Shown here: positions 1,920-52,169 of the stretch, piece by piece
Layout: each line of letters opens with the position of its first letter
Position numbering within the stretch: position 1 is the first letter of the stretch
Sequence record: MT939241.1
Length of the DNA stretch: 64,000 nt
Source of the DNA: Enterococcus phage 9183
Reading direction: 5' to 3' (one strand)
Program-made: the position numbers and the translations under genes
The notes under the pieces: generated by a model
Seen by the model: the letters and a program-made list of their open reading frames with translations, nothing else
Told to the model about the DNA's origin: nothing
Databases searched by the model: none

Positions 1920-1947
1920 TTTACACATTAAAAGTCATTGATATAAT
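1920..1947 (+). promoter_or_regulatory. Consensus phage promoter: GTTTACA, 16 nt spacer, TGATATAAT
   Basis: -35 at 1920-1925; extended -10 at 1939-1947. Confidence 0.65.
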
Positions 1948-1981
1948 ATAAACATAAATTAATAGGAAAGAGGTAAATGAA

Positions 1982-3919
1982 TTGGAAGTTATGTTCTACT
2001 CACCACGAGAAAGTAAACAATATGCGGCTCACCTATGCTATAAGTTAGGAATTAAGTATACGATAGCAAAAAAGATAGCTGAAAATAGTACGGCAATGCA
2101 ATCATTATTCGATGCTTATCGTACAGGAGACGAAGCTGATTATGATGATGCTTGGAATAATTTGAAAGAGATCGATGGAATTGGCCCTAAACGTTCTACT
2201 CTTTATTTGGAAAAATATTTTGAAGACCCTTATCGTTCGATCAATTGGGAAATGTTCAATATCCTTCAAAAGTATCAACAAGTAACAGGTTGGACAGAAA
2301 ATAGAATGTATGATTTAGCTAGACGAATTGATGATCCTTCTAAAATTTGGTTAGTCTATCTTAACGATGAATCTATTACATTACCAATTGCTATTGAAAT
2401 TTATAAGATGACAACGAAAGATGAGCCTTATCTTCAGTCACAAACGATTCAATACTTTACGCAATACACAGATCTTAAAGCAAGTCAATTCCAACATAAT
2501 AATTTAACTTCACCCAAGTTCTTATTCAACAAAGATTTAAATGAACAATATAAATTATTTATGGAAATTGAAGATGTCGTAATGCTAAGAGAGACTGCGG
2601 AAGATTACGTTGCTATCTTAAAGTTTATGAGAGAAAATAAGAATGAAACTTTAGAACTTAGTCTTAATGATATTGATATTTCAGATTTTGGAGAAGATCA
2701 AGTCGTAGCTTTTGAAAAATTAAAAGATAAACGAGTAATGTTGCTTACAGGTTATGCAGGCACTGGTAAAACTTATATGCTTGATAAATATATATCTGCA
2801 TTGGCAGGACATAGAATTTATGCTTGTGCTTTAGCGGGTAAAGCTGTAAAGAACTTTGTTGATGCAATGTCAGTAGAGAGCATGAGAAAGATTAATCAAT
2901 CGACTATCGCAGGATTGCGTTACGTTCCAACTTATAAAGATTATTTTTCTAAATCGTCAGTCGTTATCGTCGATGAAGCAAGTATGATTTCAATGTCAGA
3001 CTTAGCTTATATTATTCGATTAATGAATGAAGATACGAAATTAATTTTGATCGGAGATATTAATCAATTGCCAGCGATTCAATTGGATGTTCTTAATTGG
3101 CTCGTTAGTGATAATGAATTAGAAAAGGTAACTCTTGATATTCCTAAACGACAAGCTGCAGACTCAGGTATCTTTAAGGATAGTATGTCTATCATTAATA
3201 AAGAGATCCCAGCTTTTGACACTGAAGAAAGTCAAGCTCGTATAGGACAAACATATGTTCAACAGATCATTGCTGAAAATATGGATGCAGATATTTTCTT
3301 GACGACAACGAATCAAGTTAAAGATACGATCAATAACATTAAAGCTGAAGAGGTTCGTCAAATTCCAAATCATGCTGTTTTTCAAAATAAGATTTATAAA
3401 GAGACAGTTGATTTTCATGAAGGCTATCAAATTATGATTGGAAAAAATAATGTTGACACAGGTTTAATGAACGGAGATATTTTCGTTATTAATTACGAAG
3501 GTCATTTAGTAGATCCTTATACTTTAGAAGCTGCAAAAGATTTAGATGGGAAAATCTTAAAGATTGGGGAAAATCGTGATTATCCTGATGCAGGCTTTGG
3601 AGGTAACACAAAAATATTGGATACGACTGCTCATAATGTTCAAATGGCATTTGCTATCACTACCCATAAGAGTCAAGGTAGTACAATGAATAAAGGTGTA
3701 ACTGTTATGGGTCCTGGACCATTAGCAACAAGAAATCTTTTATACACTGCAATCACTCGTTTTAAAGAGAAACATGTTTTATATTTACCTGATCGTGCAT
3801 TGTTGGAACAAATCTTACAAACTGGTGTTCAATATCAAAAATTAAGCAAAGATGAACAAGATATTTTGATCAAGAAAGTTGAACAAGAAAATGAAAAACA
3901 GGAGGAAGAAAATGAATAA
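1982..3919 (+). CDS. RecD2-like ATP-dependent helicase with N-terminal HhH region
   Basis: GYAGTGKT Walker A; VVIVDEASM; LILIGDINQLPAI; THKSQGST; LYTAITRFK. Confidence 0.75.
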   Translation: MEVMFYSPRESKQYAAHLCYKLGIKYTIAKKIAENSTAMQSLFDAYRTGDEADYDDAWNNLKEIDGIGPKRSTLYLEKYFEDPYRSINWEMFNILQKYQQVTGWTENRMYDLARRIDDPSKIWLVYLNDESITLPIAIEIYKMTTKDEPYLQSQTIQYFTQYTDLKASQFQHNNLTSPKFLFNKDLNEQYKLFMEIEDVVMLRETAEDYVAILKFMRENKNETLELSLNDIDISDFGEDQVVAFEKLKDKRVMLLTGYAGTGKTYMLDKYISALAGHRIYACALAGKAVKNFVDAMSVESMRKINQSTIAGLRYVPTYKDYFSKSSVVIVDEASMISMSDLAYIIRLMNEDTKLILIGDINQLPAIQLDVLNWLVSDNELEKVTLDIPKRQAADSGIFKDSMSIINKEIPAFDTEESQARIGQTYVQQIIAENMDADIFLTTTNQVKDTINNIKAEEVRQIPNHAVFQNKIYKETVDFHEGYQIMIGKNNVDTGLMNGDIFVINYEGHLVDPYTLEAAKDLDGKILKIGENRDYPDAGFGGNTKILDTTAHNVQMAFAITTHKSQGSTMNKGVTVMGPGPLATRNLLYTAITRFKEKHVLYLPDRALLEQILQTGVQYQKLSKDEQDILIKKVEQENEKQEEENE

Positions 3920-4460
3920 TTATTTTAGAATTGGAGACGTAGTAAAAATAATTGGACATGCAAATGATGAAAGCTATTATCATGTAGGCGCATTGCTTTA
4001 TAATTATGGTGAAATAATTGAACTTCACAAAAACGACGATTTTGCGAAGTTGAAGATGGAAAATGGAGAAGAAATAGTTTTAAATGTTCGTTGTCTTGAA
4101 AAAATGAATTTTCCAATGGTTGATGATAAACATAAAATTGCTTTTATCATGTATCCTGAAGAAGGAAAGAAAAATGAAGCTGGTGTGGCAATTAGTATGT
4201 CAATTTGCTATAAATTATTCAAAGTGAATAATACTTCACAACTTGATTTTATCGTTTCCAAAATAAAAGATAAATATTTAACAGGATCAAAATTATTATT
4301 TAACGTCTCATTACTTGACTCGGAGAAATCTGAAGACTTATTTTATTATGAAAATGGGTTTAAACCTACAGACGATCAATTGATCAGTTTTCTTGCTGAA
4401 AAAATAAAAGAGGAGCAAAAAGGTGTGGAAGATAAGATACGAAATAGAAGTTTTCATTGA
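3912..4460 (+). CDS. Hypothetical protein
   Basis: ORF with GGAGG RBS 7 nt upstream of the ATG; start chosen inside track ORF 3879..4460. Confidence 0.5.
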   Translation: MNNYFRIGDVVKIIGHANDESYYHVGALLYNYGEIIELHKNDDFAKLKMENGEEIVLNVRCLEKMNFPMVDDKHKIAFIMYPEEGKKNEAGVAISMSICYKLFKVNNTSQLDFIVSKIKDKYLTGSKLLFNVSLLDSEKSEDLFYYENGFKPTDDQLISFLAEKIKEEQKGVEDKIRNRSFH

Positions 4461-4525
4461 GACAATTTTTTGTATGATTGTTTTATTATTTGATGTAATT
4501 GCATATTATATAAAAAAGTTAAAGA

Positions 4526-4553
4526 GATAGGTTTACACTAACCTATCTTTTTT
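4526..4553 (+). terminator. Intrinsic terminator (8-bp stem gataggtt/aacctatc plus T-run) whose loop carries the -35 of the next promoter
   Basis: hairpin and TTTTTT read directly. Confidence 0.6.
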
Positions 4554-4560
4554 ATATAAT
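4532..4560 (+). promoter_or_regulatory. Consensus phage promoter
   Basis: TTTACA at 4532-4537, 17-nt spacer, TATAAT at 4555-4560. Confidence 0.65.
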
Positions 4561-4595
4561 ATAAACATAAAATTAAAGCAAAAGAGGTTAAGAAA

Positions 4596-7993: not shown

Positions 7994-8035
7994 GCATAAT
8001 ATGTAGATGAATCTATTTACATATTATGCTTTTTA
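7994..8035 (+). terminator. Intrinsic terminator (12-bp stem gcataatatgta/tacatattatgc plus TTTTT) embedding the -35 of the next promoter
   Basis: perfect inverted repeat followed by a T-run. Confidence 0.65.
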
Positions 8036-8044
8036 ATTTATAAT
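8016..8044 (+). promoter_or_regulatory. Consensus-like promoter (TTTACA, 17 nt spacer, TATAAT)
   Basis: read directly. Confidence 0.55.
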
Positions 8045-8374: not shown

Positions 8375-8403
8375 TGTTTACATATTGTGCTTTATTAGTT
8401 ATA
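8375..8403 (+). promoter_or_regulatory. Consensus phage promoter
   Basis: TTTACA, 17-nt spacer, TATAAT. Confidence 0.6.
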
Positions 8404-8445
8404 ATTAATATATAATAAATAAACAAATGAAAGAAGGAATTTAAA

Positions 8446-8703: not shown

Positions 8704-8713
8704 AAATTATAAA

Positions 8714-8742
8714 ATAGGGATTTAATCCCTATTTTTTTTTTT
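8714..8742 (+). terminator. Intrinsic terminator (atagggat/atccctat stem plus T11)
   Basis: read directly. Confidence 0.7.
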
Positions 8743-8761: not shown

Positions 8762-8789
8762 TTTACATATTTTTATATGATGATATAAT
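8762..8789 (+). promoter_or_regulatory. Consensus phage promoter; near-identical copy at 40784..40811
   Basis: gtttacatatttttatatgatgatataat. Confidence 0.65.
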
Positions 8790-10029: not shown

Positions 10030-10055
10030 TAGGAGTCTTTTGACTCCTTTCTTTT
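10030..10055 (+). terminator. Intrinsic terminator (aggagtc/gactcct stem plus T-run)
   Basis: read directly. Confidence 0.6.
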
Positions 10056-10074: not shown

Positions 10075-10103
10075 TTTACACTAAGATGTGTACTTGATAT
10101 AAT
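10075..10103 (+). promoter_or_regulatory. Consensus phage promoter
   Basis: TTTACA, 17-nt spacer, TGATATAAT. Confidence 0.65.
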
Positions 10104-11831: not shown

Positions 11832-12071
11832 ATGAAAGTTATCATATATTCAAGGAATAAATGTATGCAATGTAAAATGATGAAAAACTACTTCACTGGA
11901 TTAAAAATACCTTTTCAAGAGGTAAATGTAGACGAGGATGAGGTAGGCATGAACGAATTAAAAATGTTAGGATTTCAATCAGTGCCTGTGACACATATAG
12001 TAAATGAAGAAGGTCACCATTGGATCAAAGGTTTTGCACCACATAAAGTTTCTAAATTATTGAAATTTTGA
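11832..12071 (+). CDS. nrdH: NrdH-like glutaredoxin (CxxC redoxin)
   Basis: N-terminal CMQC motif in an ~80-aa thioredoxin fold; C-terminal motif HxWxGF. Confidence 0.6.
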   Translation: MKVIIYSRNKCMQCKMMKNYFTGLKIPFQEVNVDEDEVGMNELKMLGFQSVPVTHIVNEEGHHWIKGFAPHKVSKLLKF

Positions 12072-12073
12072 GG

Positions 12074-12100
12074 CAGTAAGTTTACACTTACTGTCTTTTT
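12074..12100 (+). terminator. Terminator (cagtaag/cttactg stem) whose loop is the TTTACA -35 of the next promoter
   Basis: read directly; T-run tcttttttt. Confidence 0.6.
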
Positions 12101-12109
12101 TGATATAAT
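12081..12109 (+). promoter_or_regulatory. Consensus phage promoter
   Basis: TTTACA, 17-nt spacer, TGATATAAT. Confidence 0.65.
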
Positions 12110-12145: not shown

Positions 12146-13189
12146 ATGGCATATGCTGGAAACTCTTTCTTCTTCGGAGAAATTGATGGAGTAACTTTAA
12201 AAGACTTAGGAAAATTAGATGCGTCCAAAACTTCTCTTGAAGATAGAAAGAAATGTTTGTCTGATCAATTAGACAGCACAAACTATTTCGTTGACTACTT
12301 AAGTCAATTTTATAAAGTAAATATTAATTCCAACGAAGCTCTTAGCGAAGACGTTGATATTTTTAAACGTTTGGAACAAATGGCTACATATTTATTGAAG
12401 TCAGACGAATCCAAGGCGATCGATCAAACAGAAAAGAAAGTTTATGTTTTTCATAATCGTCGTGAACGTTTTTCAAATTATATGAATCGTGAATCAGTTT
12501 CAATGAATCAAAATGGAAAAAGCATTAATATCGTCGATTCGGATAATATTGTTCATGCATTAATGGCGAAGAAGAAAAATAGTCGTAAACCAAAAATTCA
12601 AAAAATATTGCCTCAAGATTTAAAACGTAAAGATATTGTAGGAGAAGTTTTACGAGACTACCAAGTTTTTCTTGATTACATTGAACGAAAGCTGCATGAA
12701 GAACAAGATAAAAATTGGAGAAAATATTCTCGTCAACGCTATCTTGTTCAACAAGATATGATTGATGCAAAAAATATGTTAAGTGGAGTATGGGGTTTTA
12801 ACATTTCAGTTAGTGAAAGCCATGTACCCGACTTAAATATATTTGATTTCACTGATTACGACACTGTTCGCTACTTATTGGATTATCCTTGTCCTAGTGT
12901 AGATTTTGAAGAAGAAATGTGGATAGTTTGGCAAGATTTCATGGAAACTGTCAAGAAAGCAGGATTGACTAAAGAGGAAGCAAAAATCGTTTGTTGTCTC
13001 CAACAAAATTGGAGGATTCAAGAAATTAGTGATGAATTAGGAATTAAATATGCTTCTCTATATCAAACTGTCATTCCAAGGATCGTTAAGAAAATTATGA
13101 AAGTTGGAAACAAATACGATTGCTTTGACCCTAAAGTTGAGGAAAAAGTAAAACGTCGTAAAATTAATGCGGGAAAAATTAAAGAATAG
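12146..13189 (+). CDS. Hypothetical protein with C-terminal sigma-70 region-4-like HTH (putative transcription factor)
   Basis: C-terminus LTKEEAKIVCCLQQNWRIQEISDELGIKYASLYQTVIPRIVKKIMK resembles region 4.2. Confidence 0.35.
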   Translation: MAYAGNSFFFGEIDGVTLKDLGKLDASKTSLEDRKKCLSDQLDSTNYFVDYLSQFYKVNINSNEALSEDVDIFKRLEQMATYLLKSDESKAIDQTEKKVYVFHNRRERFSNYMNRESVSMNQNGKSINIVDSDNIVHALMAKKKNSRKPKIQKILPQDLKRKDIVGEVLRDYQVFLDYIERKLHEEQDKNWRKYSRQRYLVQQDMIDAKNMLSGVWGFNISVSESHVPDLNIFDFTDYDTVRYLLDYPCPSVDFEEEMWIVWQDFMETVKKAGLTKEEAKIVCCLQQNWRIQEISDELGIKYASLYQTVIPRIVKKIMKVGNKYDCFDPKVEEKVKRRKINAGKIKE

Positions 13190-13217
13190 TTTACATTTCA
13201 AATGTCAATGATATAAT
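13190..13217 (+). promoter_or_regulatory. Consensus phage promoter
   Basis: TTTACA, 16-nt spacer, TGATATAAT. Confidence 0.6.
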
Positions 13218-13232
13218 ATGAATATAAAAATT

Positions 13233-13255
13233 TAGCTCTAGTTTTTCTAGAGCTA
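13233..13255. other. Perfect 9-bp-stem hairpin (tagctctag/ctagagcta) in the 5' leader between promoter and CDS
   Basis: read directly; followed by TTTTA. Confidence 0.5.
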
Positions 13256-13277
13256 TTTTAAAGAAAGGAAATTGATT

Positions 13278-14126
13278 ATGGCTTTTAAGTATGAAACCTA
13301 TATCAATAGTAAAGAATGGTTGGAAAAAAGCGAACGATATTTGAAAGAATATCCAATTTGTGAAATTTGTCACAAGCATAAAGCCACGCAAGTACACCAC
13401 ACTAGCTATAAGAATATAGGAAAAGAAAAACGAAGAGATCTTTTAGGTGTTTGTGATCGTTGTCACACTCATTTACATTTACTTCCACCTAAAATCGAAG
13501 ACAAAGTTAGATTAGTAAAAGCTGAAAAATTGATCGAGACTTTCATTCAGTATCCCGCATTAAAAACTTTGGCCTTTAATGAACTAATGGAAAAGTATTA
13601 TCCAGGAGAAAATTACATGATCGATTTAGCTTCAAGAGTTTGTGACGACACAGCTTTCTTTATGCAAAACGTCATGGAAATGTTAGATGCTGACAGTGAA
13701 GAAAAAGGCACAGATTTAATTGAGGAATTATCTCGTATCGTTTACTTGCTTAAAATGAAAGCGGGTAAAAATAAAATGCTTCATGATAAAGAAAAAGCTG
13801 AACGCAAACGTAAGTATGAAAATGGTGATTATGATTACATGTTCACTACGACAACGACAGATAAGGTAAAACAAACTGTTGATGAAGTAATTAAAAACAG
13901 ACGTAAGAATTTTTGCTTAAGCGAACTTGCAAGTCGCCCAATTTTAGGTGAAGCAATGCGATGGGCAAATATAACTTTTTACGAAGGGCAAATGTTCTTT
14001 AAACGTTCAGGTATTGTTACTAGTGCTCAATTTTATCTTGAAGCCGTAAAGAAAGGTTTTGATCAAGATTTATTTGAACATTTAGGAGGTACACTTAACG
14101 ATTTAGTTGGTGATGTTGATGCTTGA
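13278..14126 (+). CDS. HNH endonuclease-domain protein
   Basis: CEICHK...HH...N...CDRCH zinc-finger/HNH motif at the N-terminus. Confidence 0.55.
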   Translation: MAFKYETYINSKEWLEKSERYLKEYPICEICHKHKATQVHHTSYKNIGKEKRRDLLGVCDRCHTHLHLLPPKIEDKVRLVKAEKLIETFIQYPALKTLAFNELMEKYYPGENYMIDLASRVCDDTAFFMQNVMEMLDADSEEKGTDLIEELSRIVYLLKMKAGKNKMLHDKEKAERKRKYENGDYDYMFTTTTTDKVKQTVDEVIKNRRKNFCLSELASRPILGEAMRWANITFYEGQMFFKRSGIVTSAQFYLEAVKKGFDQDLFEHLGGTLNDLVGDVDA

Positions 14127-14712
14127 AATAATTAAAGATTTTTTAAACTGGAGAAAAAGCAATAGGAGTAAAGAAAATGCCATGAATATTTTTAGAGATA
14201 TTCGTGGCACTGAACTCAAAGAATTGCAAGATACATTAGATGGAATTTATCCTGATATTTCAAATGTAATTAATAAGCAACTTGATTCAAAAATAGGATG
14301 TATAAACATTAATGTAAATGTTCCTATATATTCTCCTTTTAAAAAGGAAGAAAAAGATGTTCAATTAATGTTGCCTACTTACCCGCCAGAGAAAAAGATA
14401 GAAAAATTAATCGTTCAAGTATCTCTTGAGACTATTGAATATTATGACAAGAAAGCAAGAGATTTATATCCTTATAACGAAGATCAAAGATTATTATATT
14501 TTATAATGAAAATATTTCGTAAGCCTTTACCACCAGGATATGGCTTTGATATTCATTCTCTTGAGAAGAAAATTTCCGATCAGGTATTAGGTAGTGTTTT
14601 CTTTATGATTAATGTTGTTCCTTATGAGGAACAACAAGTAAGTTTTTATGAGGATGGAAAATTGAGAAGAACTTTCAATAAAGTACCCAAAGGAGTAATT
14701 GTTCACGAATGA
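14110..14712 (+). CDS. Hypothetical protein
   Basis: ORF. Confidence 0.4.
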   Translation: MMLMLEIIKDFLNWRKSNRSKENAMNIFRDIRGTELKELQDTLDGIYPDISNVINKQLDSKIGCININVNVPIYSPFKKEEKDVQLMLPTYPPEKKIEKLIVQVSLETIEYYDKKARDLYPYNEDQRLLYFIMKIFRKPLPPGYGFDIHSLEKKISDQVLGSVFFMINVVPYEEQQVSFYEDGKLRRTFNKVPKGVIVHE

Positions 14713-14725
14713 CAAGGAGGAAATT

Positions 14726-14926: not shown

Positions 14927-14955
14927 TTTACAGTGAATTTAGGCAATGATATAAT
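14927..14955 (+). promoter_or_regulatory. Consensus phage promoter
   Basis: TTTACA, 17-nt spacer, TGATATAAT. Confidence 0.65.
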
Positions 14956-16942: not shown

Positions 16943-16970
16943 TTTACAATATCATTTTAGATGATATAAT
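16943..16970 (+). promoter_or_regulatory. Consensus phage promoter
   Basis: TTTACA, 16-nt spacer, TGATATAAT. Confidence 0.65.
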
Positions 16971-20013: not shown

Positions 20014-20022
20014 GAGGAAAAT

Positions 20023-20259: not shown

Positions 20260-20285
20260 TGAAAAGGTTAAGCTGTTTTCCTAGT

Positions 20286-20310
20286 AAGGTTTACAGTTTA
20301 ACCTTTTCTT
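20286..20310 (+). terminator. Hairpin aaggtt/aacctt plus a T-run, overlapping the -35 of the next promoter
   Basis: read directly. Confidence 0.5.
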
Positions 20311-32956: not shown

Positions 32957-32966
32957 AAATAAAAAT

Positions 32967-35380: not shown

Positions 35381-35391
35381 GATTTTTAATG

Positions 35392-35420
35392 AAGGTTCGT
35401 TTACATAGCGAACCTTTTTT
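35392..35420 (+). terminator. Intrinsic terminator (aaggttcg/cgaacctt plus T6) whose 9-nt loop is the -35 TTTACA of the next promoter
   Basis: read directly. Confidence 0.7.
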
Positions 35421-35428
35421 GATATAAT
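35400..35428 (+). promoter_or_regulatory. Consensus phage promoter
   Basis: TTTACA, 17-nt spacer, TGATATAAT. Confidence 0.65.
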
Positions 35429-38400: not shown

Positions 38401-39314
38401 GAGAATTAATGATTAAGTTTGTTGAATACGTTGAACCTCTTAAAGAAAAATTGACGACCGCGGTTATTCCAAAAATAATTGATCGCGTGCCTGAAACTTA
38501 TAAAGAAGGCGTAACTGCTTACATGTTTCTTAAGGAAGTAAAAGGTAAGAAAAATCATACACAATATTCGGATCATTTCTTTGATAATTATGAAAAATTA
38601 TGTAAAGAAAAAGTAACGAAAAAATATCCAAATTCATATTATTATGATGATAATGGTGAATTAGTAATTGAAGTAAAAGTACTTGAAAAAGTAGTAAAAG
38701 ATAAGATGGAACCAATTAAAGAATGGCTTAAGACTGAAGAGGCTTTACGTGCTGAAGCTGCATTAAGACGAACAGCGTTTTGGAATAAGTATTGTCAAGG
38801 AACGATTTCTCATTGGGAAATGGAATCAATTACGTTCTACATTTCAAATCACGAACTTAATGAATATCCACTTGATTCATACTTTAACATTGCGTCATTT
38901 AAAGATATGCCAAGAGAACCTGAAATTATTGGTTGGTCAAATGGGAGAGGAAGAAAATGGCCTCAATTAAAAACGGAGGTCATTGCGGGAACCGTCATTG
39001 ATACTTTACCTAAGAAGGGTATCGTCACAATTATTACACAAACTGGAGTCGTCGATGTTCGTGTAGGAAAAGGAAAGTATCAACATTATAATAAGAAAAT
39101 AATGGTTGGCGAAGGTAAAGAACGAGTAAACATTGATGATACTTGGTGGAAACGTGGAAATATGATTGTCGTCGTTGGTTATCGTCGTGAAAATGATTTT
39201 TATGCTAATGCAAGAAATAGTTCATATCAACATTCAGTGATGCTGATCAAAGGTCACGATGGTAAGAAAGTATTCGTTCAACAGGAAAAGAAAAAAATAG
39301 GAGAAGATTATTAA
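35460..39314 (+). CDS. dnaE: DNA polymerase III alpha subunit (DnaE-type) with N-terminal PHP domain
   Basis: PHP motif SIHNHSYYS...VLSDHETIAG; 1284 aa; polymerase core region conserved. Confidence 0.75.
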   Translation: MSWFSIHNHSYYSNFRLRDATNAPEDIIDKAIELGLTGIVLSDHETIAGAPKFLDYAKKLEKENKLPEGFKVGVGNEAYLIDRKYEQAMIDQEKVKYYHFIMLAKNQRGFEFLKKQTALAWSHRIYSRGMERVPTYKQDLVELMKEYKGDVVASTACIGGELPQLILKLEEATLNGNDNEVKEIKQEIHNFIHFLVNTFGHENVFFELQPSYQEEQKIVNKWLPTIAEAYKIKCIVTTDAHYLTLAQQEFHKQYLQASEGEREVEQFYATTYIFSYDELLEYFDQELLDVLVENTNIIKDMIEEINYKHETVIPNSHIPSFKPNMEIMKKIDEEKYPNIYKMMNSKVLEDRYYHHRVMQGFIDKKQEFNDENLSRIDLEYSELEEISEQLGQPMTSYFLAMTEFVDIMWEHSLVGVGRGSAVCYYTNYLLDIVQLNPIKYDLPYWRFLSREYVGEFPDIDVDAQGSQRASIIEGVKERFGHENVLNIGTYTTEGARAASLTACRALGLDPDTAQNITNMIPSDKGNPWPLHDAFFGNEEENRKPDKAFINEVNNYEGLQELMLQSQGLVSGRGQHASGVVVFPNGYTSMNTMMKTSNGLPITQWDAGTTEAAGGIKYDFLSINALDRIKSAMDMLLKDGKIEWQGSLRDTFNKYFHPDVLEMDADKMYDMLFDGEIISAFQFEAKTGRQALEKINARNFNQLVAANSLMRLSCEGEQPIDKFIRYKNDLSNWDKDMDEYGLTEDEKKVMHELLDARYGVCETQEAIMQIAMHEKVAKYNLREAKGLRKASAKKKPEIQEKQKKLFFEKGTANGTSTNLLNYIWNECYVPTFGYSFSAPHVAAYTMILMIEMNIAYRYGVHYWKAACLNVDAGILDGEVEGGTRYGKIAKALSGFREDVVPPSVNKSDIGFTPDSKTGKIMYGLKPIVGMNGKLARQIIENRPYSNIKDFIEKNLENGDLTKGKMVNLIKSGIFDELYANRRELMIKFVEYVEPLKEKLTTAVIPKIIDRVPETYKEGVTAYMFLKEVKGKKNHTQYSDHFFDNYEKLCKEKVTKKYPNSYYYDDNGELVIEVKVLEKVVKDKMEPIKEWLKTEEALRAEAALRRTAFWNKYCQGTISHWEMESITFYISNHELNEYPLDSYFNIASFKDMPREPEIIGWSNGRGRKWPQLKTEVIAGTVIDTLPKKGIVTIITQTGVVDVRVGKGKYQHYNKKIMVGEGKERVNIDDTWWKRGNMIVVVGYRRENDFYANARNSSYQHSVMLIKGHDGKKVFVQQEKKKIGEDY

Positions 39315-39316
39315 GG

Positions 39317-39342
39317 CTGTGTTTACACAGTCTTTTCTTCTT
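39317..39342 (+). terminator. Hairpin gctgtg-ttta-cacagtc plus T-rich tract, carrying the next -35
   Basis: read directly. Confidence 0.55.
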
Positions 39343-39350
39343 GATATAAT
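39322..39350 (+). promoter_or_regulatory. Consensus phage promoter
   Basis: TTTACA, 17-nt spacer, TGATATAAT. Confidence 0.65.
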
Positions 39351-39644: not shown

Positions 39645-39919
39645 GTATGAAAAATGCATTTATGTTTATGAAATTGGAAAATAAGTTAAAGAAAAGCGAA
39701 ATCTTTATTTTAGGATATATTTTTGGTTCGCGTGACTCAGCTTTGCAGCTTGCACAAAATACTCATAAGCTGACTGACGAACAAATCAATGAATTGGATG
39801 AAGATGTATTTACGCCTGAAGCTCTTGAAGACGCTTGGAATCGTATTGCGGCTGAAATGCAAATCACTGATGCGCGATCATATTTTGATGTAATGGAAAT
39901 TTTAGAAAAAGCGAAATAA
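39641..39919 (+). CDS. Small hypothetical protein
   Basis: ORF. Confidence 0.5.
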   Translation: MSMKNAFMFMKLENKLKKSEIFILGYIFGSRDSALQLAQNTHKLTDEQINELDEDVFTPEALEDAWNRIAAEMQITDARSYFDVMEILEKAK

Positions 39920-39920
39920 A

Positions 39921-39948
39921 TATGGGGATTTTACCCCATATTTTTTTA
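39921..39948 (+). terminator. Intrinsic terminator (tatgggg/ccccata plus T7)
   Basis: read directly. Confidence 0.7.
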
Positions 39949-39990: not shown

Positions 39991-40019
39991 TTTACACATA
40001 CTTTTTCCTATGATATAAT
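39991..40019 (+). promoter_or_regulatory. Consensus phage promoter driving an ORF-less transcript
   Basis: TTTACA, 17-nt spacer, TGATATAAT. Confidence 0.65.
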
Positions 40020-40026
40020 ACTAAAG

Positions 40027-40195
40027 TAGATAAATAGATATACATATTTGTCTGAGGGACTTCGTTAGAAGTTCCGAAGGGCATCAGCTTCGCTGATGTA
40101 TTGCCAAGGTTGTACATATTTTATGTGGTTCCTTACCGAACGAGATAGAACGAAATAGGTAAAAAAAAAAATAGAGGATTTCTCCTCTATTTTAA
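40027..40195 (+). ncRNA. Candidate structured small RNA (~170 nt) between a consensus promoter and a bidirectional terminator; no ORF
   Basis: hairpins GGGACUUC-GUUA-GAAGUUCC (40056-75) and CAUCAGC-UUCG-GCUGAUG (40082-98); terminator at 40161-40200; longest ORF 20 aa with no RBS. Confidence 0.5.
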
Positions 40196-40200
40196 TTTAT
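40161..40200. terminator. Bidirectional terminator: A11, atagagga-tttc-tcctctat, T-run
   Basis: read directly. Confidence 0.7.
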
Positions 40201-40610
40201 TTTTTATGGAAATTTACTTCTTCAAAGAATCGATCAAGAGGATAAAAATCATCAATTTCAGGATCTTCAATCATGCGATAAATTTCTTCATTTTGAATTT
40301 TATCAAAGATTGGAAAATATTCATTAGCTCTATACTTATATGATCGTGCAACTTCCTCTTTAACACTTGCATCTAGGTTCGTTGAATTTAATTGTCCTCT
40401 TACATGATCAATGATAAAATCAATGAATTCATTTTTATTAACGTAAAGATCTTGGAAAAATTCTTTTTCTCTTGAGGCAAAATCTTCAAGTTCGTCGATC
40501 ATTGATTCGTATTGTTGATAAAGATCTTCATTATAATGAGGAATCTCCATTAGCAAATATTGACTTTCTTTAGTTTTCTTTAATAATTCTTGGTATTTTG
40601 TGTTTTTCAT
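40197..40610 (-). CDS. Acidic hypothetical protein; the only minus-strand gene inside the plus-strand early region
   Basis: ORF with minus-strand RBS aggagtga; own terminator; Glu/Asp-rich. Confidence 0.55.
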   Translation of the reverse strand: MKNTKYQELLKKTKESQYLLMEIPHYNEDLYQQYESMIDELEDFASREKEFFQDLYVNKNEFIDFIIDHVRGQLNSTNLDASVKEEVARSYKYRANEYFPIFDKIQNEEIYRMIEDPEIDDFYPLDRFFEEVNFHKK

Positions 40611-40783: not shown

Positions 40784-40811
40784 TTTACATATTTTTATAC
40801 GATGATATAAT
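40784..40811 (+). promoter_or_regulatory. Consensus promoter, near-identical duplicate of 8762..8789
   Basis: gtttacatatttttatacgatgatataat. Confidence 0.65.
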
Positions 40812-41422: not shown

Positions 41423-41699
41423 AGGCGAAGTTTATGTAGGTAAAGTAGGTACGTCACAAATTTTATTCGAGGTTGCTTTTGCCTACGATAACGATACTTA
41501 TAGCGCAGCACACGCTATTAGACTTGACAACGAAATCAATAATGAAAGCGTCGTTGTCTTTAATCATTCAAACGATGTTGTGATTTCATTATTTGACGAA
41601 GGAAAAGTTCGTGAGGCTACAACTAGAGAAATAATGATTTATGCTGAAGCTGTAAAACTTTACGATAAATTTTATAATGAAACGAGTTTACGAAAGTAA
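41409..41699 (+). CDS. Hypothetical protein
   Basis: ORF. Confidence 0.5.
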   Translation: MMLNKGEVYVGKVGTSQILFEVAFAYDNDTYSAAHAIRLDNEINNESVVVFNHSNDVVISLFDEGKVREATTREIMIYAEAVKLYDKFYNETSLRK

Positions 41700-41715
41700 C
41701 TCGTTTTGATATAAT
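41681..41715 (+). promoter_or_regulatory. Hairpin (aacgagtt/aactcgtt) overlapping the upstream stop codon, plus promoter variant (TTTACG, 18 nt spacer, TGATATAAT)
   Basis: read directly. Confidence 0.5.
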
Positions 41716-44179: not shown

Positions 44180-44531
44180 TTACTTTGCGTTTTTTGCCGC
44201 CATATTCATTACAGCTGCCCTATTGTCTTTTGGTTTCTATAAGCAAAATATAGATGAAAAGATTAAGCAGCTTGAAGACGACAAGACGACTCTTATCTAT
44301 GAAAATAAAGAACTTAAAAAGAAAGATAATTATTTAAGTGACACATATGATGATTGGAAAGAGTCTGCTGGAGAAAAATTAGGATATGGTTCTATCTTTC
44401 AGCTTGAAGGAATTGATAGTGTAAAAGATACGACAATTCTTACAGTTAAAGACACAAAATATGGTGGCGAATATATTATAATAACAAACAGCGATCGTTC
44501 GTTTATGCAAATAACAGAGAGAAAAAAATAG
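44148..44531 (+). CDS. Membrane-anchored hypothetical protein
   Basis: N-terminal TM helix. Confidence 0.45.
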   Translation: MNFLRESKISDYFAFFAAIFITAALLSFGFYKQNIDEKIKQLEDDKTTLIYENKELKKKDNYLSDTYDDWKESAGEKLGYGSIFQLEGIDSVKDTTILTVKDTKYGGEYIIITNSDRSFMQITERKK

Positions 44532-44553
44532 AGGGATTACCCCTCTATTTTTA
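44528..44553 (+). terminator. Intrinsic terminator (tagaggg/ccctcta plus T-run)
   Basis: read directly. Confidence 0.65.
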
Positions 44554-44585: not shown

Positions 44586-44614
44586 TTTACAAGTCACTCA
44601 TTGATTGATATAAT
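44586..44614 (+). promoter_or_regulatory. Consensus phage promoter driving an ORF-less ~290-nt leader
   Basis: TTTACA, 17-nt spacer, TGATATAAT. Confidence 0.6.
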
Positions 44615-44620
44615 TATTAA

Positions 44621-44908
44621 GTGGTCAAAATTAATAAAGAAATTAAAGATCCTCGGAACTTTATCCTTCCTACTTAAACAACATTTGATCGCTTTCATAC
44701 AATTCATTTAAGGTTTTAAAATCAACCATTTTAAGTATAAACTTTTCAATTAAAAAACATTAATAAAAGAAAATTTTCTATATACATTGTTCTTAATAAG
44801 GTTTATAATTAATATGTTGGTTAAAAACACAACAAAGCATTACATAAAGAATCAGTCTTGAAAACCTAGCTTTTAAAGAAGAAAGCCAGATTCAGGTGGC
44901 TATTTTTT
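44621..44908 (+). ncRNA. AT-rich ~290-nt non-coding transcript/leader ending in an intrinsic terminator (agcca-gattcagg-tggct plus T6), directly upstream of the sigma-factor gene
   Basis: no ORF over 15 aa with an RBS; terminator at 44884..44908. Confidence 0.45.
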
Positions 44909-44945
44909 ATGCACAAAAATACTATATTAAAGGTGGAAAAATAAC

Positions 44946-45575
44946 ATGACAAAAACATTCTTAATGACAACGAAAACAGGTGCAGTGCAAAAAGATTTTA
45001 CATTTGAAGAATTATACACCCAGTTCTTTAAGATGATTCAAAAAGAAACTTGGTCAATGGTTAAAGTTTATGGAAACATTATGAAACGAGAAGAAATAGA
45101 ACAACAATTCACGATTGAACTTTGGAACTCATATGAAAAATATGACATCAGCCACGGAACTTGCATTTCAACTTACATCTATAATCGTTTCCAAAAAGCA
45201 AAAAGAGATCTTCTTTATCCACTTATTGGTTCAAGTAAAAGCAAATGGGAAAAGAAAAACACAACTTCATTATCAGCAAAACATAATGAAGATGATCGTA
45301 ATGATCAGTCTAATAAGATGTTTACAAACGATAAGACATATAACCAAATAGTTAGCGCAGAAAATCTTCTTGTGAGTCAAGATTTAATTGAAGCAATCAT
45401 AAGCGTTTATAATAGAGAAGAAGATCTTGATCTTATTTTAATCTTGATTGATAAGAAGACTTATTCAGTCGCAAATTATGCAGAAAAATGGGGAATTTCA
45501 CGTGTAGCAGCCAATAATAGATTAAGAAAAATTAAGAAAGAATTGGTTAATGTGTTGGAAGATTTCAAGAATTAA
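44946..45575 (+). CDS. Phage sigma-70-family (ECF/SPO1 gp28/gp34-like) sigma factor
   Basis: region 2 block FTIELWNSYEKYD...STYIYNRFQKAKRDLL; region 4 HTH YAEKWGISRVAANNRLRKIKKEL. Confidence 0.6.
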   Translation: MTKTFLMTTKTGAVQKDFTFEELYTQFFKMIQKETWSMVKVYGNIMKREEIEQQFTIELWNSYEKYDISHGTCISTYIYNRFQKAKRDLLYPLIGSSKSKWEKKNTTSLSAKHNEDDRNDQSNKMFTNDKTYNQIVSAENLLVSQDLIEAIISVYNREEDLDLILILIDKKTYSVANYAEKWGISRVAANNRLRKIKKELVNVLEDFKN

Positions 45576-45601
45576 AATTTTCATATTAAAAATAGACGAA
45601 A

Positions 45602-45634
45602 TAAGCCTGGTAGTTTACACACTACTAGGCTTAT
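45602..45634 (+). other. 12-bp-stem hairpin (taagcctggtag/ctactaggctta, one G-U pair) with the next promoter's -35 as its loop; no T-run
   Basis: read directly. Confidence 0.5.
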
Positions 45635-45642
45635 GATATAAT
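45614..45642 (+). promoter_or_regulatory. Consensus phage promoter
   Basis: TTTACA, 17-nt spacer, TGATATAAT. Confidence 0.65.
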
Positions 45643-45676: not shown

Positions 45677-47614
45677 ATGTCTGACAAAATTAGAAAATTA
45701 GATGATAGAGCACAAGCACGTGAGAAATTAAGTATTTGGTACGGATCACGTGATAACTTCTATCATGGTATTAAAGAGCTTATCGCGAATGCCGCCGATG
45801 AATTACGAAATCATGCGACAGATCCGGGTAAAATTGAAGTTACACTTTATGAAGGAAATCGTCAAATTATGGTTAGTGATAACGGACGAGGAATTCGTAT
45901 AGGTGGTGAAACTGATGGTGAAAAGAATTATGATCTTTTATTTAGAACATTGTTCGCAGGTACAAAATATGACGTCACTGAATCGGTTACGACAGGAACG
46001 AATGGTGTAGGAACGACTGTCTTAAACTTTACATCGAAGCTGTTCGCAGTAATGTCTCATTACGATGGTTTCGTTCATAAAGTTCGCTTCAAAAATGGTG
46101 GTGAATTAGATGGGGAATACACCGAAATGAAATTAGAAAAAGGTATGAAAGATGTTCATGGTTCAACTTTTGTCGTTGAATTAGATGAAACTATTTATCC
46201 TCATGTCGAATTTTCTCCTGATAAAGTAAAAGAAATCGTTCAACATTTTGCAGCTGCTACATTAGGCGTAGAATTTACATTTAATTATCTTGATCAAAAA
46301 GAAGTATTTAAATATGAAGACATTCGTGAACGTTTCGAAGAAATGATTGGATCAACATCAACTTCAGCGATCTTTACATTGGGTGAAATTGAAAATGTAA
46401 CATCAGTTGAAATCGTTGATGGAGATAAAGATGTTGAAGAAAAAAATAGTTACAATATTATGTTAACATCAACTCCTGACGTTTACCAAGAATCATACTT
46501 AAATATGACTTGGCTTGAAAATGGTGGAGCTATTAATGAAGGTATTCTTGATGGTGTTCGTTTATTCATGAATAAGTATTGCCGCACCAATAAATTATTT
46601 CCAGGAAAGATCACCGCATTTTCAAAGGATGATGTTGAATCATCAATTTCTTTCTTAGCTTTCACTGAATCAAATATCGTCGAATTTTCTAACCAAACTA
46701 AGTTAAGTACAAATAAGAAAAAATATAGAGACGAAGCAAAAGATTATGTAATGAATTTGCTCACAGCTGTTTCAATGCAACAACCTAAAGATTTCAAAAA
46801 GCTCGTTGATCATCTTCTTATGGTTCAAAAAGCAAATGGAGCTAACGAACGTGCTCGTCAAAAATTAAAGAAACAGTTAACTGAAAAAGTTTCAGGAATT
46901 GGTAATAAAATTGAAAAACTGATCGACAGTGAAAAACATGGATTAGATGCAGAACTCTTCTTAACAGAAGGTGACTCAGCCAATGGGTCGATCGTTGATT
47001 CTCGCAACGATGAGTTCCAAGCTGCATTTCCTTTACGAGGTAAAGTTCTTAACGTTCTTAAAGCACCACTTGAAAAGATCTTTAAAAATGCGGAAATTGT
47101 GAATATGGTAAAAATCATTGGAACAGGTATCACTGATGGAAAGAAAAATGATTTTGACATTAATAATTTACGCTTTGGAAAAATCATTATCACAACTGAC
47201 GCGGATGCGGATGGTGGACACATTGCTTCATTATTGATCGCGTTCATCTATCGTTTCATGAGACCTTTACTTGAAAATGGCCATGTTTACGTAGCACAAA
47301 CGCCTTTATATGAATTGAAGTTTCCTGATGATTCAGTTGTTTACTTTTTAACTGAAGATGAAAAAGAAAAGAACATTGGTAAATATGAAGGACAAAAATA
47401 TGTTATCCAACGTCTTAAAGGATTGGGAGAAGTTGATGCTGAAACAATGGAAGCAACAACGATGAATCCTAAGACGCGAAATCTATTACAATTGACGGTC
47501 GCCGATGGAGAAGCAAATTATGCGATGATAAATAATTGGATGGGTGACGATGTAAATCCTCGTAAGAAATTAATTGAAGAGCAACTTCATAATTACATTA
47601 ACGATATTGATTAA
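45677..47614 (+). CDS. Type II topoisomerase ATPase/TOPRIM subunit (GyrB / T4 gp39-like)
   Basis: GHKL N-box ELIANAADE; TOPRIM LTEGDSA; PLRGKVLNV. Confidence 0.7.
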   Translation: MSDKIRKLDDRAQAREKLSIWYGSRDNFYHGIKELIANAADELRNHATDPGKIEVTLYEGNRQIMVSDNGRGIRIGGETDGEKNYDLLFRTLFAGTKYDVTESVTTGTNGVGTTVLNFTSKLFAVMSHYDGFVHKVRFKNGGELDGEYTEMKLEKGMKDVHGSTFVVELDETIYPHVEFSPDKVKEIVQHFAAATLGVEFTFNYLDQKEVFKYEDIRERFEEMIGSTSTSAIFTLGEIENVTSVEIVDGDKDVEEKNSYNIMLTSTPDVYQESYLNMTWLENGGAINEGILDGVRLFMNKYCRTNKLFPGKITAFSKDDVESSISFLAFTESNIVEFSNQTKLSTNKKKYRDEAKDYVMNLLTAVSMQQPKDFKKLVDHLLMVQKANGANERARQKLKKQLTEKVSGIGNKIEKLIDSEKHGLDAELFLTEGDSANGSIVDSRNDEFQAAFPLRGKVLNVLKAPLEKIFKNAEIVNMVKIIGTGITDGKKNDFDINNLRFGKIIITTDADADGGHIASLLIAFIYRFMRPLLENGHVYVAQTPLYELKFPDDSVVYFLTEDEKEKNIGKYEGQKYVIQRLKGLGEVDAETMEATTMNPKTRNLLQLTVADGEANYAMINNWMGDDVNPRKKLIEEQLHNYINDID

Positions 47615-47640
47615 GATGGGTTAAAACCCGTCTTTTTCTT
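47614..47640 (+). terminator. Intrinsic terminator (agatggg/cccgtct plus T-run)
   Basis: read directly. Confidence 0.55.
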
Positions 47641-47647: not shown

Positions 47648-47676
47648 TTTACACTTACTCATTTTAATGATATAAT
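47648..47676 (+). promoter_or_regulatory. Consensus phage promoter
   Basis: TTTACA, 17-nt spacer, TGATATAAT. Confidence 0.65.
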
Positions 47677-50290: not shown

Positions 50291-50297
50291 TAATTAA

Positions 50298-50322
50298 ATA
50301 GAGCTTCGGCTCTATTTTTTTC
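50298..50322 (+). terminator. Intrinsic terminator with a C(UUCG)G tetraloop (tagagc-ttcg-gctcta plus T7)
   Basis: read directly. Confidence 0.7.
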
Positions 50323-50331: not shown

Positions 50332-50360
50332 TTTACATCCTATATATTAATAGTTATAAT
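50332..50360 (+). promoter_or_regulatory. Consensus-like promoter (TTTACA, 17 nt spacer, AGTTATAAT)
   Basis: read directly. Confidence 0.55.
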
Positions 50361-50709: not shown

Positions 50710-50763
50710 GAAACGTATAATAGAGGAAATTCATCTATTTTTTCATATAAAATATGTAAACAG

Positions 50764-50792
50764 TTTACACTTTCTCCTCCTTCGTATATAAT
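50764..50792 (+). promoter_or_regulatory. Consensus promoter with -35 inside the palindrome GTAAACaGTTTAC
   Basis: TTTACA, 17-nt spacer, TATATAAT. Confidence 0.55.
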
Positions 50793-50819
50793 ATAAACAT
50801 ATATGAAGGAGGAATTTTT

Positions 50820-51230
50820 ATGTATATTTTATTAAAAGATTTATTGAAAAACGCTGAAGGGAATTTCTTATATCTAACACTTGATAATAGTGTATGTGTA
50901 TTCTCTTCAAAAGATGAAGCTATTATGAAATATGGAGATAAAGAAGTTATAAATATTGATACGTGTGTAAATAATTTTGGTGCTAGTTTGGTCGTTAAAG
51001 TTAAGACTCATAATGATGTTGAACTTGAACGTAAAATGACTAAAAGAATTGAAAGTCAAGTTGAGCTTTTGGAAGGGTGGCGTAGCGTCACTTCTGATGT
51101 CATGTTTAAATTATTGGTTAACAATTATATTGAAGGATTCACAGATGCGCTTTATATTTTAGGACTCGACTATTCTAATTTACTTAAAGATGTTGAGAAA
51201 ATAAAGAAAGGTGATATCATTGAGAAATAA
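50820..51230 (+). CDS. Hypothetical protein
   Basis: ORF with RBS aaggagg. Confidence 0.5.
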   Translation: MYILLKDLLKNAEGNFLYLTLDNSVCVFSSKDEAIMKYGDKEVINIDTCVNNFGASLVVKVKTHNDVELERKMTKRIESQVELLEGWRSVTSDVMFKLLVNNYIEGFTDALYILGLDYSNLLKDVEKIKKGDIIEK

Positions 51231-51531
51231 AATGTATGATACAGTTGATAAAATATGGTCATGGATTGTGGTAGGTGTTGAGGTTTTATGGGAAGCGGCT
51301 TTAAACATTGCCGAGGTGTTAATTCCATTTCTTCTAGCTATAGGACTAGGATCATTACTAATATTATTTCTATCAGTCATTCCTAAAATTTTTAGTGATG
51401 TAATAATGAAGATATTCGTTTTATCATTAATCTCATTGTGGATATTTTTTATATTGAAATCATTTATTGATCGATGTAAAATTGTCAAAAAGCAACATGA
51501 AATAAGAAAGGATTTGGAAAATAAAAAATGA
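51211..51531 (+). CDS. Membrane protein (2-3 TM helices)
   Basis: hydropathy judged from the sequence. Confidence 0.45.
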   Translation: MISLRNKMYDTVDKIWSWIVVGVEVLWEAALNIAEVLIPFLLAIGLGSLLILFLSVIPKIFSDVIMKIFVLSLISLWIFFILKSFIDRCKIVKKQHEIRKDLENKK

Positions 51532-52100
51532 AAAAGTTTATATTGATTATCTTAGCTATAATTGGAGTGCTATTCATAGGAGGAAAAGATCAAAGAGCCT
51601 ATGCGATGGTTCATTCTTCGTTTCATTCTTCATCGCATTCATCTTTTCATTCATCATCGAAAGTAGGTCGATCAACATTTAAGTCGCCCAGTCGATCAGG
51701 ATCTTCTATTAAAAGTGGATCAACTTACAAAGGTTCGGTTAAAACTCCTAAGGTGTCAGTTCCTAAGACAAATAAATCATCTTCATCTAAAGTGAAAAGC
51801 AATTCCAATTTTAAAGGTAAACCTATTAAAAATGCTGACATTCCTACGAAAGTTAAGCCTCATTCATCAAGATCATTAGGCTTTAATGAAACGAATTATC
51901 GTCCATCTTATGAATCATCTTTTTCTTCACCGAGATTTTGGATGTGGTACTGGATGTTCAATCATCATGATTATAAAGACTCCAAAGGCGTAATTCATAA
52001 GTCATCAAAAATTAATTGGTTGAGAACTATTATGATGTTCATACTTGGAGCTTCATTATTAATCTTAATATTCCTAATAATATGGGCAATACTTCTATAA
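51528..52100 (+). CDS. Membrane protein with N- and C-terminal TM helices and a Ser/His/Lys-rich low-complexity core
   Basis: HSSFHSSSHSSFHSSS repeat; signal/anchor MKKFILIILAIIGVLFIG. Confidence 0.5.
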   Translation: MKKFILIILAIIGVLFIGGKDQRAYAMVHSSFHSSSHSSFHSSSKVGRSTFKSPSRSGSSIKSGSTYKGSVKTPKVSVPKTNKSSSSKVKSNSNFKGKPIKNADIPTKVKPHSSRSLGFNETNYRPSYESSFSSPRFWMWYWMFNHHDYKDSKGVIHKSSKINWLRTIMMFILGASLLILIFLIIWAILL

Positions 52101-52140
52101 AAATAAATAGAAAAATATGAAGAAATGTGAGTAAAAATTG

Positions 52141-52169
52141 TTTACATTTCTTCATTCTCCGATTATAAT
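52141..52169 (+). promoter_or_regulatory. Consensus promoter, duplicated promoter-leader cassette (copy B)
   Basis: about 90% identical over ~80 bp to 27390..27470. Confidence 0.6.

Follow-up and report, generated by a model that had tools for sequence, protein, structure and literature searches.

Probable early promoters overlapped by candidate intrinsic terminators in a VPE25-like Enterococcus phage

The early promoters of phage T4 are among the closest described counterparts of the element treated here, a repeated promoter of Enterococcus phage 9183 whose -35 hexamer often lies within a hairpin that resembles the terminator of the preceding genes. The stretch analysed, called the window below, comprises 64,000 nucleotides of sequence record MT939241.1. 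It is highly probable, in our judgement, that these elements are the early promoters of a VPE25-like phage, read by sigma-A of the host and overlapped by intrinsic terminators. The T4 'uber' promoters carry GTTTAC at -36 to -31, with T at -33, followed by TGnTATAAT, and are read right after infection by unmodified host polymerase with its primary sigma factor (PMC1524935, PMC2988021). The window promoters resemble them in the GTTTAC(A) -35, in the extended TGnTATAAT and in their number, with dozens of near-identical copies on early genes, and glycosylated hydroxymethylcytosine DNA is found on both sides of the comparison, the DNA of VPE25 and VFW being glycosylated at cytosine (PMC4999554). 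T4 early promoters are stimulated by an ADP-ribosyltransferase (Alt) that the phage injects, and they have phased A-rich UP elements. The window, in contrast, comes from an unrelated siphovirus with a Gram-positive host, and a purine-TAA initial transcribed region and a second promoter class are specific to its lineage.

Composite elements that join a promoter and a stem-loop have also been described. In promoter-early stem-loop (PeSL) cassettes, reporters showed both promoter and terminator activities, and the promoter of the T4/PST version reads TTTACW-N17-TAYWAT (PMC2839356, PMC4122927). Like the cassettes of the window, PeSLs are repeated intergenic composites in which a strong sigma-70-type early promoter is combined with a stem-loop, a Shine-Dalgarno sequence and a start codon. 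The PeSL stem-loop lies just upstream of the promoter, however, whereas in the window the -35 falls inside the loop or 3' arm and the U-tract doubles as the promoter spacer; PeSLs cluster in hyperplastic regions and flank indels, whereas the window cassettes mostly flank core replication genes; and PeSL carriers are T4-like myoviruses, the window a Denvervirus-type siphophage. A physical overlap of a terminator structure with the promoter of the next unit is known from Salmonella, where the intrinsic terminator of one operon covers the -35/-10 region of the next and upstream transcription was found experimentally to lower downstream initiation (PMC6735719), although these are four isolated chromosomal cases, whereas the window has 11 and VPE25 has 19 segments that reach -8 kcal/mol or better. 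Among the more distant phages, the Staphylococcus phage vB_SepS_SEP9 (SEP9, a Sextaecvirus) has the same gene order, co-oriented early genes and enriched -35 hairpins, but its -35 is the canonical TTGACA at 15 of 20 sites, and homologues of the hydroxymethylase and of the glycosyltransferases are missing from its genome. An earlier note on this DNA had called its cis-regulatory grammar unusually rigid. That goes too far for a lytic phage, in whose early region such a grammar is typical, since T4 early promoters share GTTTAC and TGn-TATAAT, and both PeSLs and terminator-promoter overlaps had already been described; the compact layout is real and conserved, and it is a variant of arrangements known in T4 relatives and Salmonella.

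The window (31% G+C) belongs to a VPE25-like Enterococcus siphophage of the Denvervirus type. Enterococcus phage Planchet (Andrewesvirinae, Denvervirus) matches positions 20000-28000 at 95.3% identity; it is a virulent siphophage with an 86-kb genome, and its record annotates coding sequences only. Next, with DNA identities of about 72%, come VPE25, VFW, nattely, vipetofem, vB_EfaS_140 and vB_EfKM29, and more distantly Staphylococcus Sextaecvirus phages such as SEP9 and the Geobacillus phage GR1. Nucleotide-metabolism, DNA-modification and replication genes run co-oriented on the + strand from 1 to about 53100, and lysis and structural genes occupy the - strand from 53139 onward; the GC skew flips sign near 52 kb. 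In VPE25, 78 nucleotide-metabolism and replication genes are already on at 10 min, the earliest time sampled, and structural genes follow later (PMC7064774). We found no promoter or terminator map for VPE25-type phages in the literature consulted.

Promoters and the hairpins around them

The motif TTTACA-N14-19-TATAAT has 24 exact matches in the window, with actual spacers of 16 or 17, all on the + strand between 1920 and 52169. Dinucleotide-preserving shuffles give an expectation of 0.44 and a maximum of 3, and together with the complete strand bias they rule out chance or composition as the source of the motif. Intergenic sites with one mismatch add 32981 (TTTACT), 41687 (TTTACG), 44781 (TATACA) and 247 (-10 TAAAAT), which brings the full set to 28, 27 of them inside 1920-52169 and 247 outside. 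Further near-matches within open reading frames (ORFs) at 5469, 26859 and 38187 are probably due to chance. A generic sigma-70 scan is not enriched in total (124 vs 103, 122 vs 105, 96 vs 95), and its 11-of-12 matches are nearly all TTTACA sites.

The earlier note had counted about 28 near-identical promoters with a -35 that is almost invariably GTTTACA rather than TTGACA, and both statements hold. The hexamer is exactly TTTACA in 25 of the 28 sites, a G directly precedes it (-36) in 25, and TTGACA-N16-18-TATAAT occurs on neither strand of the window. The -10 is exactly TATAAT in 27 sites. Its extension to TGATATAAT, which the note had taken as general, is present in about two thirds (19/28), always as TGA when TGn is present, and the other nine have no TGn. 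Spacers measure 17 bp in 23 sites and 16 bp in five. The seventh base after the -10 is a purine in 27/28 (G in 18, A in 9), followed in 21 by TAA, so that a logo anchored on the -10 reads G-TTTACA, a distal spacer rich in T, TGA, TATAAT, the AT-rich discriminator ATAAA, one variable base and GTAA, with only weak A-richness upstream of -36. All 28 sites match the primary-sigma consensus at 10-11 of 12 positions. The Enterococcus faecalis sigma-A consensus is TTGACAA / GnTATAAT, its -10 ending 5-9 bp before mapped 5' ends (PMC4408782), and a single -35 base sets the phage motif apart from it. The promoters lie between genes: the predicted start is 19-58 nt before a start codon in 25 of the 28, with ribosome-binding sites present, and the preceding stop codon is 0-96 nt from the -35 where it can be assigned. 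It abuts the -35 at the class I promoters 13190-13217 and 14927-14955, and one base separates the two at 16943-16970, a class I promoter with a 16-bp spacer.

Folding of the 75 nt upstream of each -10, and then of local segments, yields a stable hairpin enclosing or including the -35 at eleven promoters, with stems of about 9-16 bp and energies of -11 to -24 kcal/mol; in most cases it begins 0-30 nt past the upstream stop codon. The -35 is in the loop in seven of these. Hairpin 4521-4552 (13 bp, loop 6, -14.1 kcal/mol) encloses that of 4532-4560, a promoter without TGn, and its T-run is the promoter spacer. Hairpin 12070-12097 (12 bp, loop 4, -14.3 kcal/mol, tail TTTTGA), around the class I promoter 12081-12109 of the sigma-like gene 12146-13189, begins at the stop codon of ORF 11832-12071 with a two-base overlap. 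The class I promoter 35400-35428, upstream of the DNA polymerase gene, has its -35 in the loop of 35387-35421 (core 35391-35417, then TTTTTT), and behind that gene (35460-39314) the class I promoter 39322-39350 has its -35 in the loop and stem of hairpin 39313-39334, which overlaps the last two bases of the stop codon and has 9 bp, a UUUA loop closed by G-C and the tail TTCTTCTT. The remaining three loop cases are devoid of a U-tract: 25332-25364 (14 bp, -17.8 kcal/mol) around 25347-25375, a promoter without TGn; 32967-32997 (12 bp with 6 G-C pairs, -17.2 kcal/mol) around the class I promoter 32981-33009, whose -35 is TTTACT; and 45601-45634 (14 bp, -19.3 kcal/mol) around the class I promoter 45614-45642, upstream of the topoisomerase subunit B gene.

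At the class I promoter 41687-41715 the TTTACG hexamer sits within a small bulged apical stem-loop of hairpin 41679-41707 (12 bp, -11.2 kcal/mol), the 3' arm of which ends in GTTTT. In the last three cases the -35 is in or beside the 3' arm. Promoter 8016-8044, without TGn and class II-like, has it in the arm of 7994-8029 (-16.8 kcal/mol, tail TTTTTAATTT); at the class I promoter 20290-20318 it is partly in an internal loop and partly in the 3' arm of 20261-20308 (16 outer bp, -24.1 kcal/mol, TTTTCTT at the 3' end); and the class II promoter 52141-52169 has it in the 3' arm of 52117-52155 (-15.3 kcal/mol, no U-tract). A T-run thus follows the stem at seven of the eleven, 4532, 8016, 12081, 20290, 35400, 39322 and 41687, and the four hairpins without one (25347, 32981, 45614 and 52141) are perfect stems of 12-15 bp with at most four T in the next 8 nt. 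All ten hairpins that the earlier note had listed exist within a few bases, apart from two whose limits had to be redrawn (20286-20310 to 20261-20308, and 41681-41715 to 41679-41707), and the one at 52117-52155 had escaped it. It was right that those at 25333, 32967 and 45602 have no T-tract, a trait which 52117-52155 shares.

To measure the association of hairpins with the -35, the 18-nt arm preceding each -35 was joined to the spacer of a different promoter in 300 permutations. Ten of the observed segments reach a fold of -8 kcal/mol or better, whereas permutation gives 1.06 on average and 5 at most, and the mean minimum free energy is -6.2 observed versus -3.2 +/- 0.33 permuted. Counting base pairs that enclose the -35 (at least five) was dropped in favour of this energy threshold, as it did not discriminate (16 vs 16.4 permuted). 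Four of the fused hairpins (7994-8029, 12070-12097, 35391-35417 and 39313-39334) are also picked up by an independent terminator scan. The same scan places separate + strand terminators just upstream of five class I promoters, namely 8711-8735 (11 bp and a T-run, 27 nt before the -35) for 8762-8789, 10031-10048 for 10075-10103, 27881-27904 for 27945-27973, 39918-39943 for 39991-40019, which has no ORF downstream, and 47613-47634 for 47648-47676; a sixth, 50296-50317, precedes 50332-50360, which lacks TGn and is class II-like. Before the class I promoter 44586-44614 the scan called the - strand only, and the + strand stem and T-run of the terminator-like hairpin 44524-44552 were read from the sequence. 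The tally is 28 promoters, 11 fused terminators and 7 separate ones.

How might such a layout work? Recognition by sigma-A, start sites, termination efficiency and the coupling of units are inferred here. Once the DNA enters the cell, host RNA polymerase with sigma-A would read the promoters, starting at the purine-TAA 7 nt after the -10, and the promoters would divide 52 kb of co-oriented early genes into about 28 short units, of which some two thirds have a predicted intrinsic terminator right in front of the promoter that follows. Where the two are fused, the stem arms would flank or include the -35 and the U-tract, at about -24 to -16, would serve as the T-rich spacer. Transcripts coming from upstream should accordingly stop just short of the following -10. 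Such an overlap could save intergenic space (stop-to-start distances are about 65-80 nt) and keep incoming polymerases from running over the next promoter. It might also couple neighbouring units, a plausible idea by analogy with tufB-secE of Salmonella, in that a terminating polymerase would transiently cover the -35 and spacer. The hairpins without a U-tract are most likely weak terminators or 3'-end stabilisers that allow read-through.

Conservation in relatives and competing explanations

The promoter grammar extends to the relatives at about 72% identity. On the early strand, TTTACA and TTGACA sites number 32 and 0 in the whole genome of VPE25, 26 and 1 in a 50-kb stretch of vB_EfaS_140, and 26 and 0 in a 50-kb stretch of vB_EfKM29. 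Placed by flanking coding sequence, most promoters lie at orthologous gene boundaries despite that divergence. At 12081, 25347, 32981, 35400 and 39322 the -35 is surrounded by a hairpin in both clades, with unrelated stem sequences: the first reads GGCAGTAAG-TTTACA-CTTACTGTC-TTTTTT in the window and GAGACG-TTTACATAA-CGTCTC-TTTTTT in VPE25. Between the window and Planchet the stem at 32981 differs by one compensatory change from G-C to A-T, and in the other stem differences a wobble pair gives way to a Watson-Crick pair. Where separate terminators stand in the window, at 1920, 10075 and 47648, VPE25 has fused hairpins, and it has one also at 13190, where the window has none; at 27945 its hairpin holds the -35 in the 3' arm without a T-run, and the window has a separate terminator. 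Conversely, the fused hairpins at 4532, 20290, 41687 and 45614 have no counterpart in VPE25. The enrichment is recovered, with 19 segments at -8 kcal/mol or better in VPE25 against 4.9 permuted (maximum 9), and 6 of 19 in SEP9 against 0.6 (maximum 4); the GenBank record of SEP9 annotates one overlapping promoter-terminator pair and one abutting pair. Stems that change while the structure is kept point to selection on RNA pairing and not on a protein-binding site. The fusion of terminator and promoter proposed in the earlier note, with the -35 in the loop or 3' arm of the preceding hairpin at about ten sites, finds support in this comparison, the architecture being kept while the stems changed. 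Enrichment of the motif, its strand and position, its conservation across clades, the excess of hairpins and the turnover of stems are all matters of direct observation.

Could another protein read these promoters? A sigma-like protein of the phage would explain why the -35 always departs from TTGACA, and the window encodes two candidates: gene 12146-13189 matches the PHROG family 'sigma factor' (E = 4.9e-45), and gene 44946-45575 is annotated as a sigma factor in Planchet. GR1, with its TTTAC-type -35, has homologues of both, and SEP9, with TTGACA, of the first only. Yet both genes sit downstream of TTTACA-type promoters, which host polymerase would have to read in at least those two instances. 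The motif agrees with the sigma-A consensus at 11 of 12 positions, one base apart, and has a typical TGn; VPE25 genes behind such promoters are on by 10 min; and the late strand of the window has no TTTACA-type motif but a different candidate motif, which fits phage sigma factors that serve late genes. We therefore regard these as early promoters read by the host and a phage-encoded reader as improbable. Even less credit is due to the proposal that the inverted repeats act as DNA, either as operators for a dimeric regulator of phage or host or as cruciforms. They are centred on an element that polymerase contacts, a frequent location for repressors, and four have no U-tract. However, no stem sequence is common to the promoters or to the orthologues, and therefore no common protein site is present; seven stems are followed by T-runs and four pass the independent terminator scan; most repeats start 7-30 nt past stop codons; and the base-pair change between the window and Planchet is compensatory. 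For the same lack of a shared stem sequence, the modulation of promoter access that the earlier note had considered is unlikely to work through a protein.

The hairpins 25332-25364, 32967-32997, 45601-45634 and 52117-52155 might instead be processing or stabilising elements in read-through transcripts, a reading to which we give limited but real weight. Their stems are long and perfect, with few T behind them, and a hairpin at the 3' end of an RNA is well known to block 3'-5' exonucleases. For RNase III, on the other hand, stems of 12-15 bp are short, and NusA/NusG-dependent terminators of Firmicutes tolerate poor U-tracts. VPE25-clade orthologues of two of the four, 25347 (TTTTTA after the stem) and 32981 (TTTTTTTA after the stem), do bear T-tracts, so the ancestral role there looks like termination and these hairpins look like weakened terminators; the orthologue of 45614 in VPE25 has no hairpin. 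This speaks against treating them as a class apart, as the earlier note had considered, since two of its three examples have such orthologues. Much less is to be said for the idea that the cassettes are kept chiefly as substrates for recombination and shuffle gene modules, as proposed for PeSLs, with transcription secondary, which we consider unlikely. The conserved core of 30-50 bp would suit it, as would class II cassettes in front of unrelated small ORFs and in numbers that differ by clade (about 13 in VPE25, 3-5 in the window), and PeSL-mediated mini-circles are documented in RB49/phi1. But most cassettes stand at conserved boundaries of core replication genes, and the window and Planchet differ by only two indels (7254 and 14157-14716), 234-793 nt from the nearest -10. 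Shuffling of the PeSL type between these two genomes, a single pair, was accordingly discarded, the breakpoints not being at cassettes.

Several points nevertheless count against host-read promoters with overlapping terminators. Start sites and termination alike are predicted. The T found invariably as the third base of the -35 mismatches the host consensus and is not explained by plain recognition by sigma-A, and part of the set could be read later by polymerase modified by the two phage sigma-like proteins. Nine sites lack TGn, and 3-5 of these form a second class with a conserved downstream box. As to the hairpins, four of the eleven have no U-tract, and several fused stems are A-U rich and fail the strict terminator scan. 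GR1 has seven TTTACG-N16/17-TATAAT promoters and no TTGACA, and the permutation folding test finds no fused hairpins in it, its last 29 kb having been covered through the annotation alone.

Taken as host-read early promoters overlapped by terminators, these elements give a concrete transcription-unit map for VPE25-type phages, which are candidate therapeutics against Enterococcus, and such a map is useful for engineering. The fused module is present in two clades of related Enterococcus phages and in one of Staphylococcus phages, with stems that turn over freely. It is a good natural system for the coexistence of overlapping termination and initiation signals, and it could show whether the coupling of units is negative, through occlusion, or positive, through recycling of polymerase.

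The third -35 base and cytosine modification

Why should the third -35 base be T? One tentative answer, to which we assign a lowish probability, is that TTTACA in place of TTGACA is an adaptation to hypermodified cytosine. A G at -33 would place glycosylated hydroxymethylcytosine on the template strand, in the major groove read by sigma region 4.2. The window encodes a thymidylate-synthase-like hydroxymethylase, an orthologue of the VPE25 enzyme (55% identity); of the solved structures, the CMP hydroxymethylase MilA matches it best (E = 3.5e-28). Thymidylate synthase Asn177 is the residue that sets the preference for uracil or cytosine; the motif RSNDLWTGTPYDI presumably has Asp in its place, in a register aligned by hand that we take to match the E. 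coli enzyme. In SEP9, which uses TTGACA, no homologue of the modification enzymes was found. Among T4 relatives, gene 42 is present in T-evens, RB69 and 44RR and absent from RB49, RB43, Aeh1 and KVP40 (PMC2993671), and the -33 consensus is T in T4 and PST, both with gene 42, and G in RB49/phi1, RB43, Aeh1 and nt-1/KVP40 (PMC1524935, PMC4122927); T at -33 is presumed for RB69 and 44RR, which are not singled out as exceptions in PMC1524935.

The proposal is weakened by the number of independent lineages that bear on it, which is two, by the C retained at -31 in the motif, and by GR1, which has TTTACG without a recognisable hydroxymethylase. GR1 does have a glycosyltransferase, ThyX and an amidoligase, and it is possibly a counter-example or possibly a phage with a different modification. 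If the proposal is true, a Gram-negative myovirus lineage and a Gram-positive siphovirus lineage came to this solution independently of each other. It also provides a testable account of a trait of T4 early promoters for which the literature consulted gives no explanation.

A scan of viral contigs for independent lineages with the motif did not serve this purpose: the multi-copy contigs were known relatives, the T4-like contigs L058 and L106, and the unidentified phages L057, L071 and L075, and they cannot bear on the modification proposal because they were selected by the motif itself. The G-TTTACA...TGATATAAT grammar occurs in multiple copies, and without TTGACA, in unrelated IMG/VR loci (L057, L071, L075, L022, L087, L058 and L106). 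L058 and L106 have gene-42-like hydroxymethylase genes, and L071 is a 135-kb human-gut contig whose matches, to uncultured phages from faeces and to Enterocloster phages, are all weak (about 66% identity across one quarter of the query).

The DNA-modification module of the window (28523-34535) differs from that of VPE25. The hydroxymethylase is shared, and the T4-like beta-glucosyltransferase of VPE25 is replaced by a nucleotidyltransferase-kinase fusion (30097-31731) and other glycosyltransferases, which suggests that the DNA of the window carries a different sugar. Planchet has an extra beta-glucosyltransferase-like gene (L001, 6755-7921), without counterpart in the window, at the indel 7254.

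The second promoter class and neighbouring features

Three of the promoters without TGn, 8377-8405, 27401-27429 and 52141-52169, belong to cassettes (8377-8440, 27401-27465 and 52141-52215) of a second type, class II, which reads AAAA(T/C)TG-TTTACA-N17-TATAAT, with AAAATTG at 8377; degenerate versions lie at 8016 and 50332. Exactly 11 bp downstream a second perfect TATAAT (predicted -1 to +5) is followed by AATAAACAAA. This downstream box is near-invariant in both clades, and the cassettes precede unrelated small ORFs; paralogy of these ORFs was considered and set aside, as their proteins have no significant similarity. Sigma-dependent promoter-proximal pause elements, known from lambdoid PR', occupy the same place as the second -10-like element, which could alternatively be an operator or leader element.

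Of the remaining promoters, the class I variant 247-275, TTTACA-17-TGATAAAAT, lies upstream of ORF 313-1884, and the class I promoter 1920-1947, G-TTTACA-16-TGATATAAT, has a weak separate hairpin with a T-run just upstream, at about 1892-1909. The class I promoter 40784-40811 has a 16-bp spacer, and 50764-50792 matches the motif without TGn. A weaker promoter-like site, 44781-44809 (TATACA-17-TATAAT, no TGn), falls within 44586-44945, where 325 nt without an ORF separate the consensus promoter 44586 from the sigma-like gene 44946-45575. This interval also includes a hairpin at 44884-44901 and may be a regulatory leader for a putative late sigma factor. Another leader, 13224-13271, precedes the HNH endonuclease gene 13272-14126 and holds a terminator-like hairpin, TAGCTCTAG-TTTTT-CTAGAGCTA-TTTT (13233-13255), which directly follows the predicted start of promoter 13190 and may be an attenuator. 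Nearby, about 560 bp of the window (14157-14716) are absent from Planchet; they hold most of ORF 14107-14712 and have no promoter cassettes at their bounds.

A search of the intergenic regions of the window for known RNA families and tRNAs found none. Promoter 39991-40019 does face a candidate non-coding RNA of about 170 nt (40026-40200, +), which would end at terminator 40168-40193, is predicted to fold at -56.3 kcal/mol (z = -6.15 vs shuffles) and has no Rfam match. It converges on the sole minus-strand gene of the early region (40197-40610), is present in Planchet and was not found in the VPE25 clade.

Late-strand intergenic regions (- strand, 54117-54175 and 55340-55450, and likewise in VPE25) have no TTTACA promoter; they carry another AT-rich motif, often after a hairpin, which is ACTTATATATAATATA in VPE25 and TACATATATAA in the window and is a candidate late promoter for the phage sigma factors. 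Two terminators have T-runs on both strands and are predicted to be bidirectional: 40168-40193, between the candidate small RNA and the minus-strand gene, and 53118-53136, at the junction of the convergent early and late regions.

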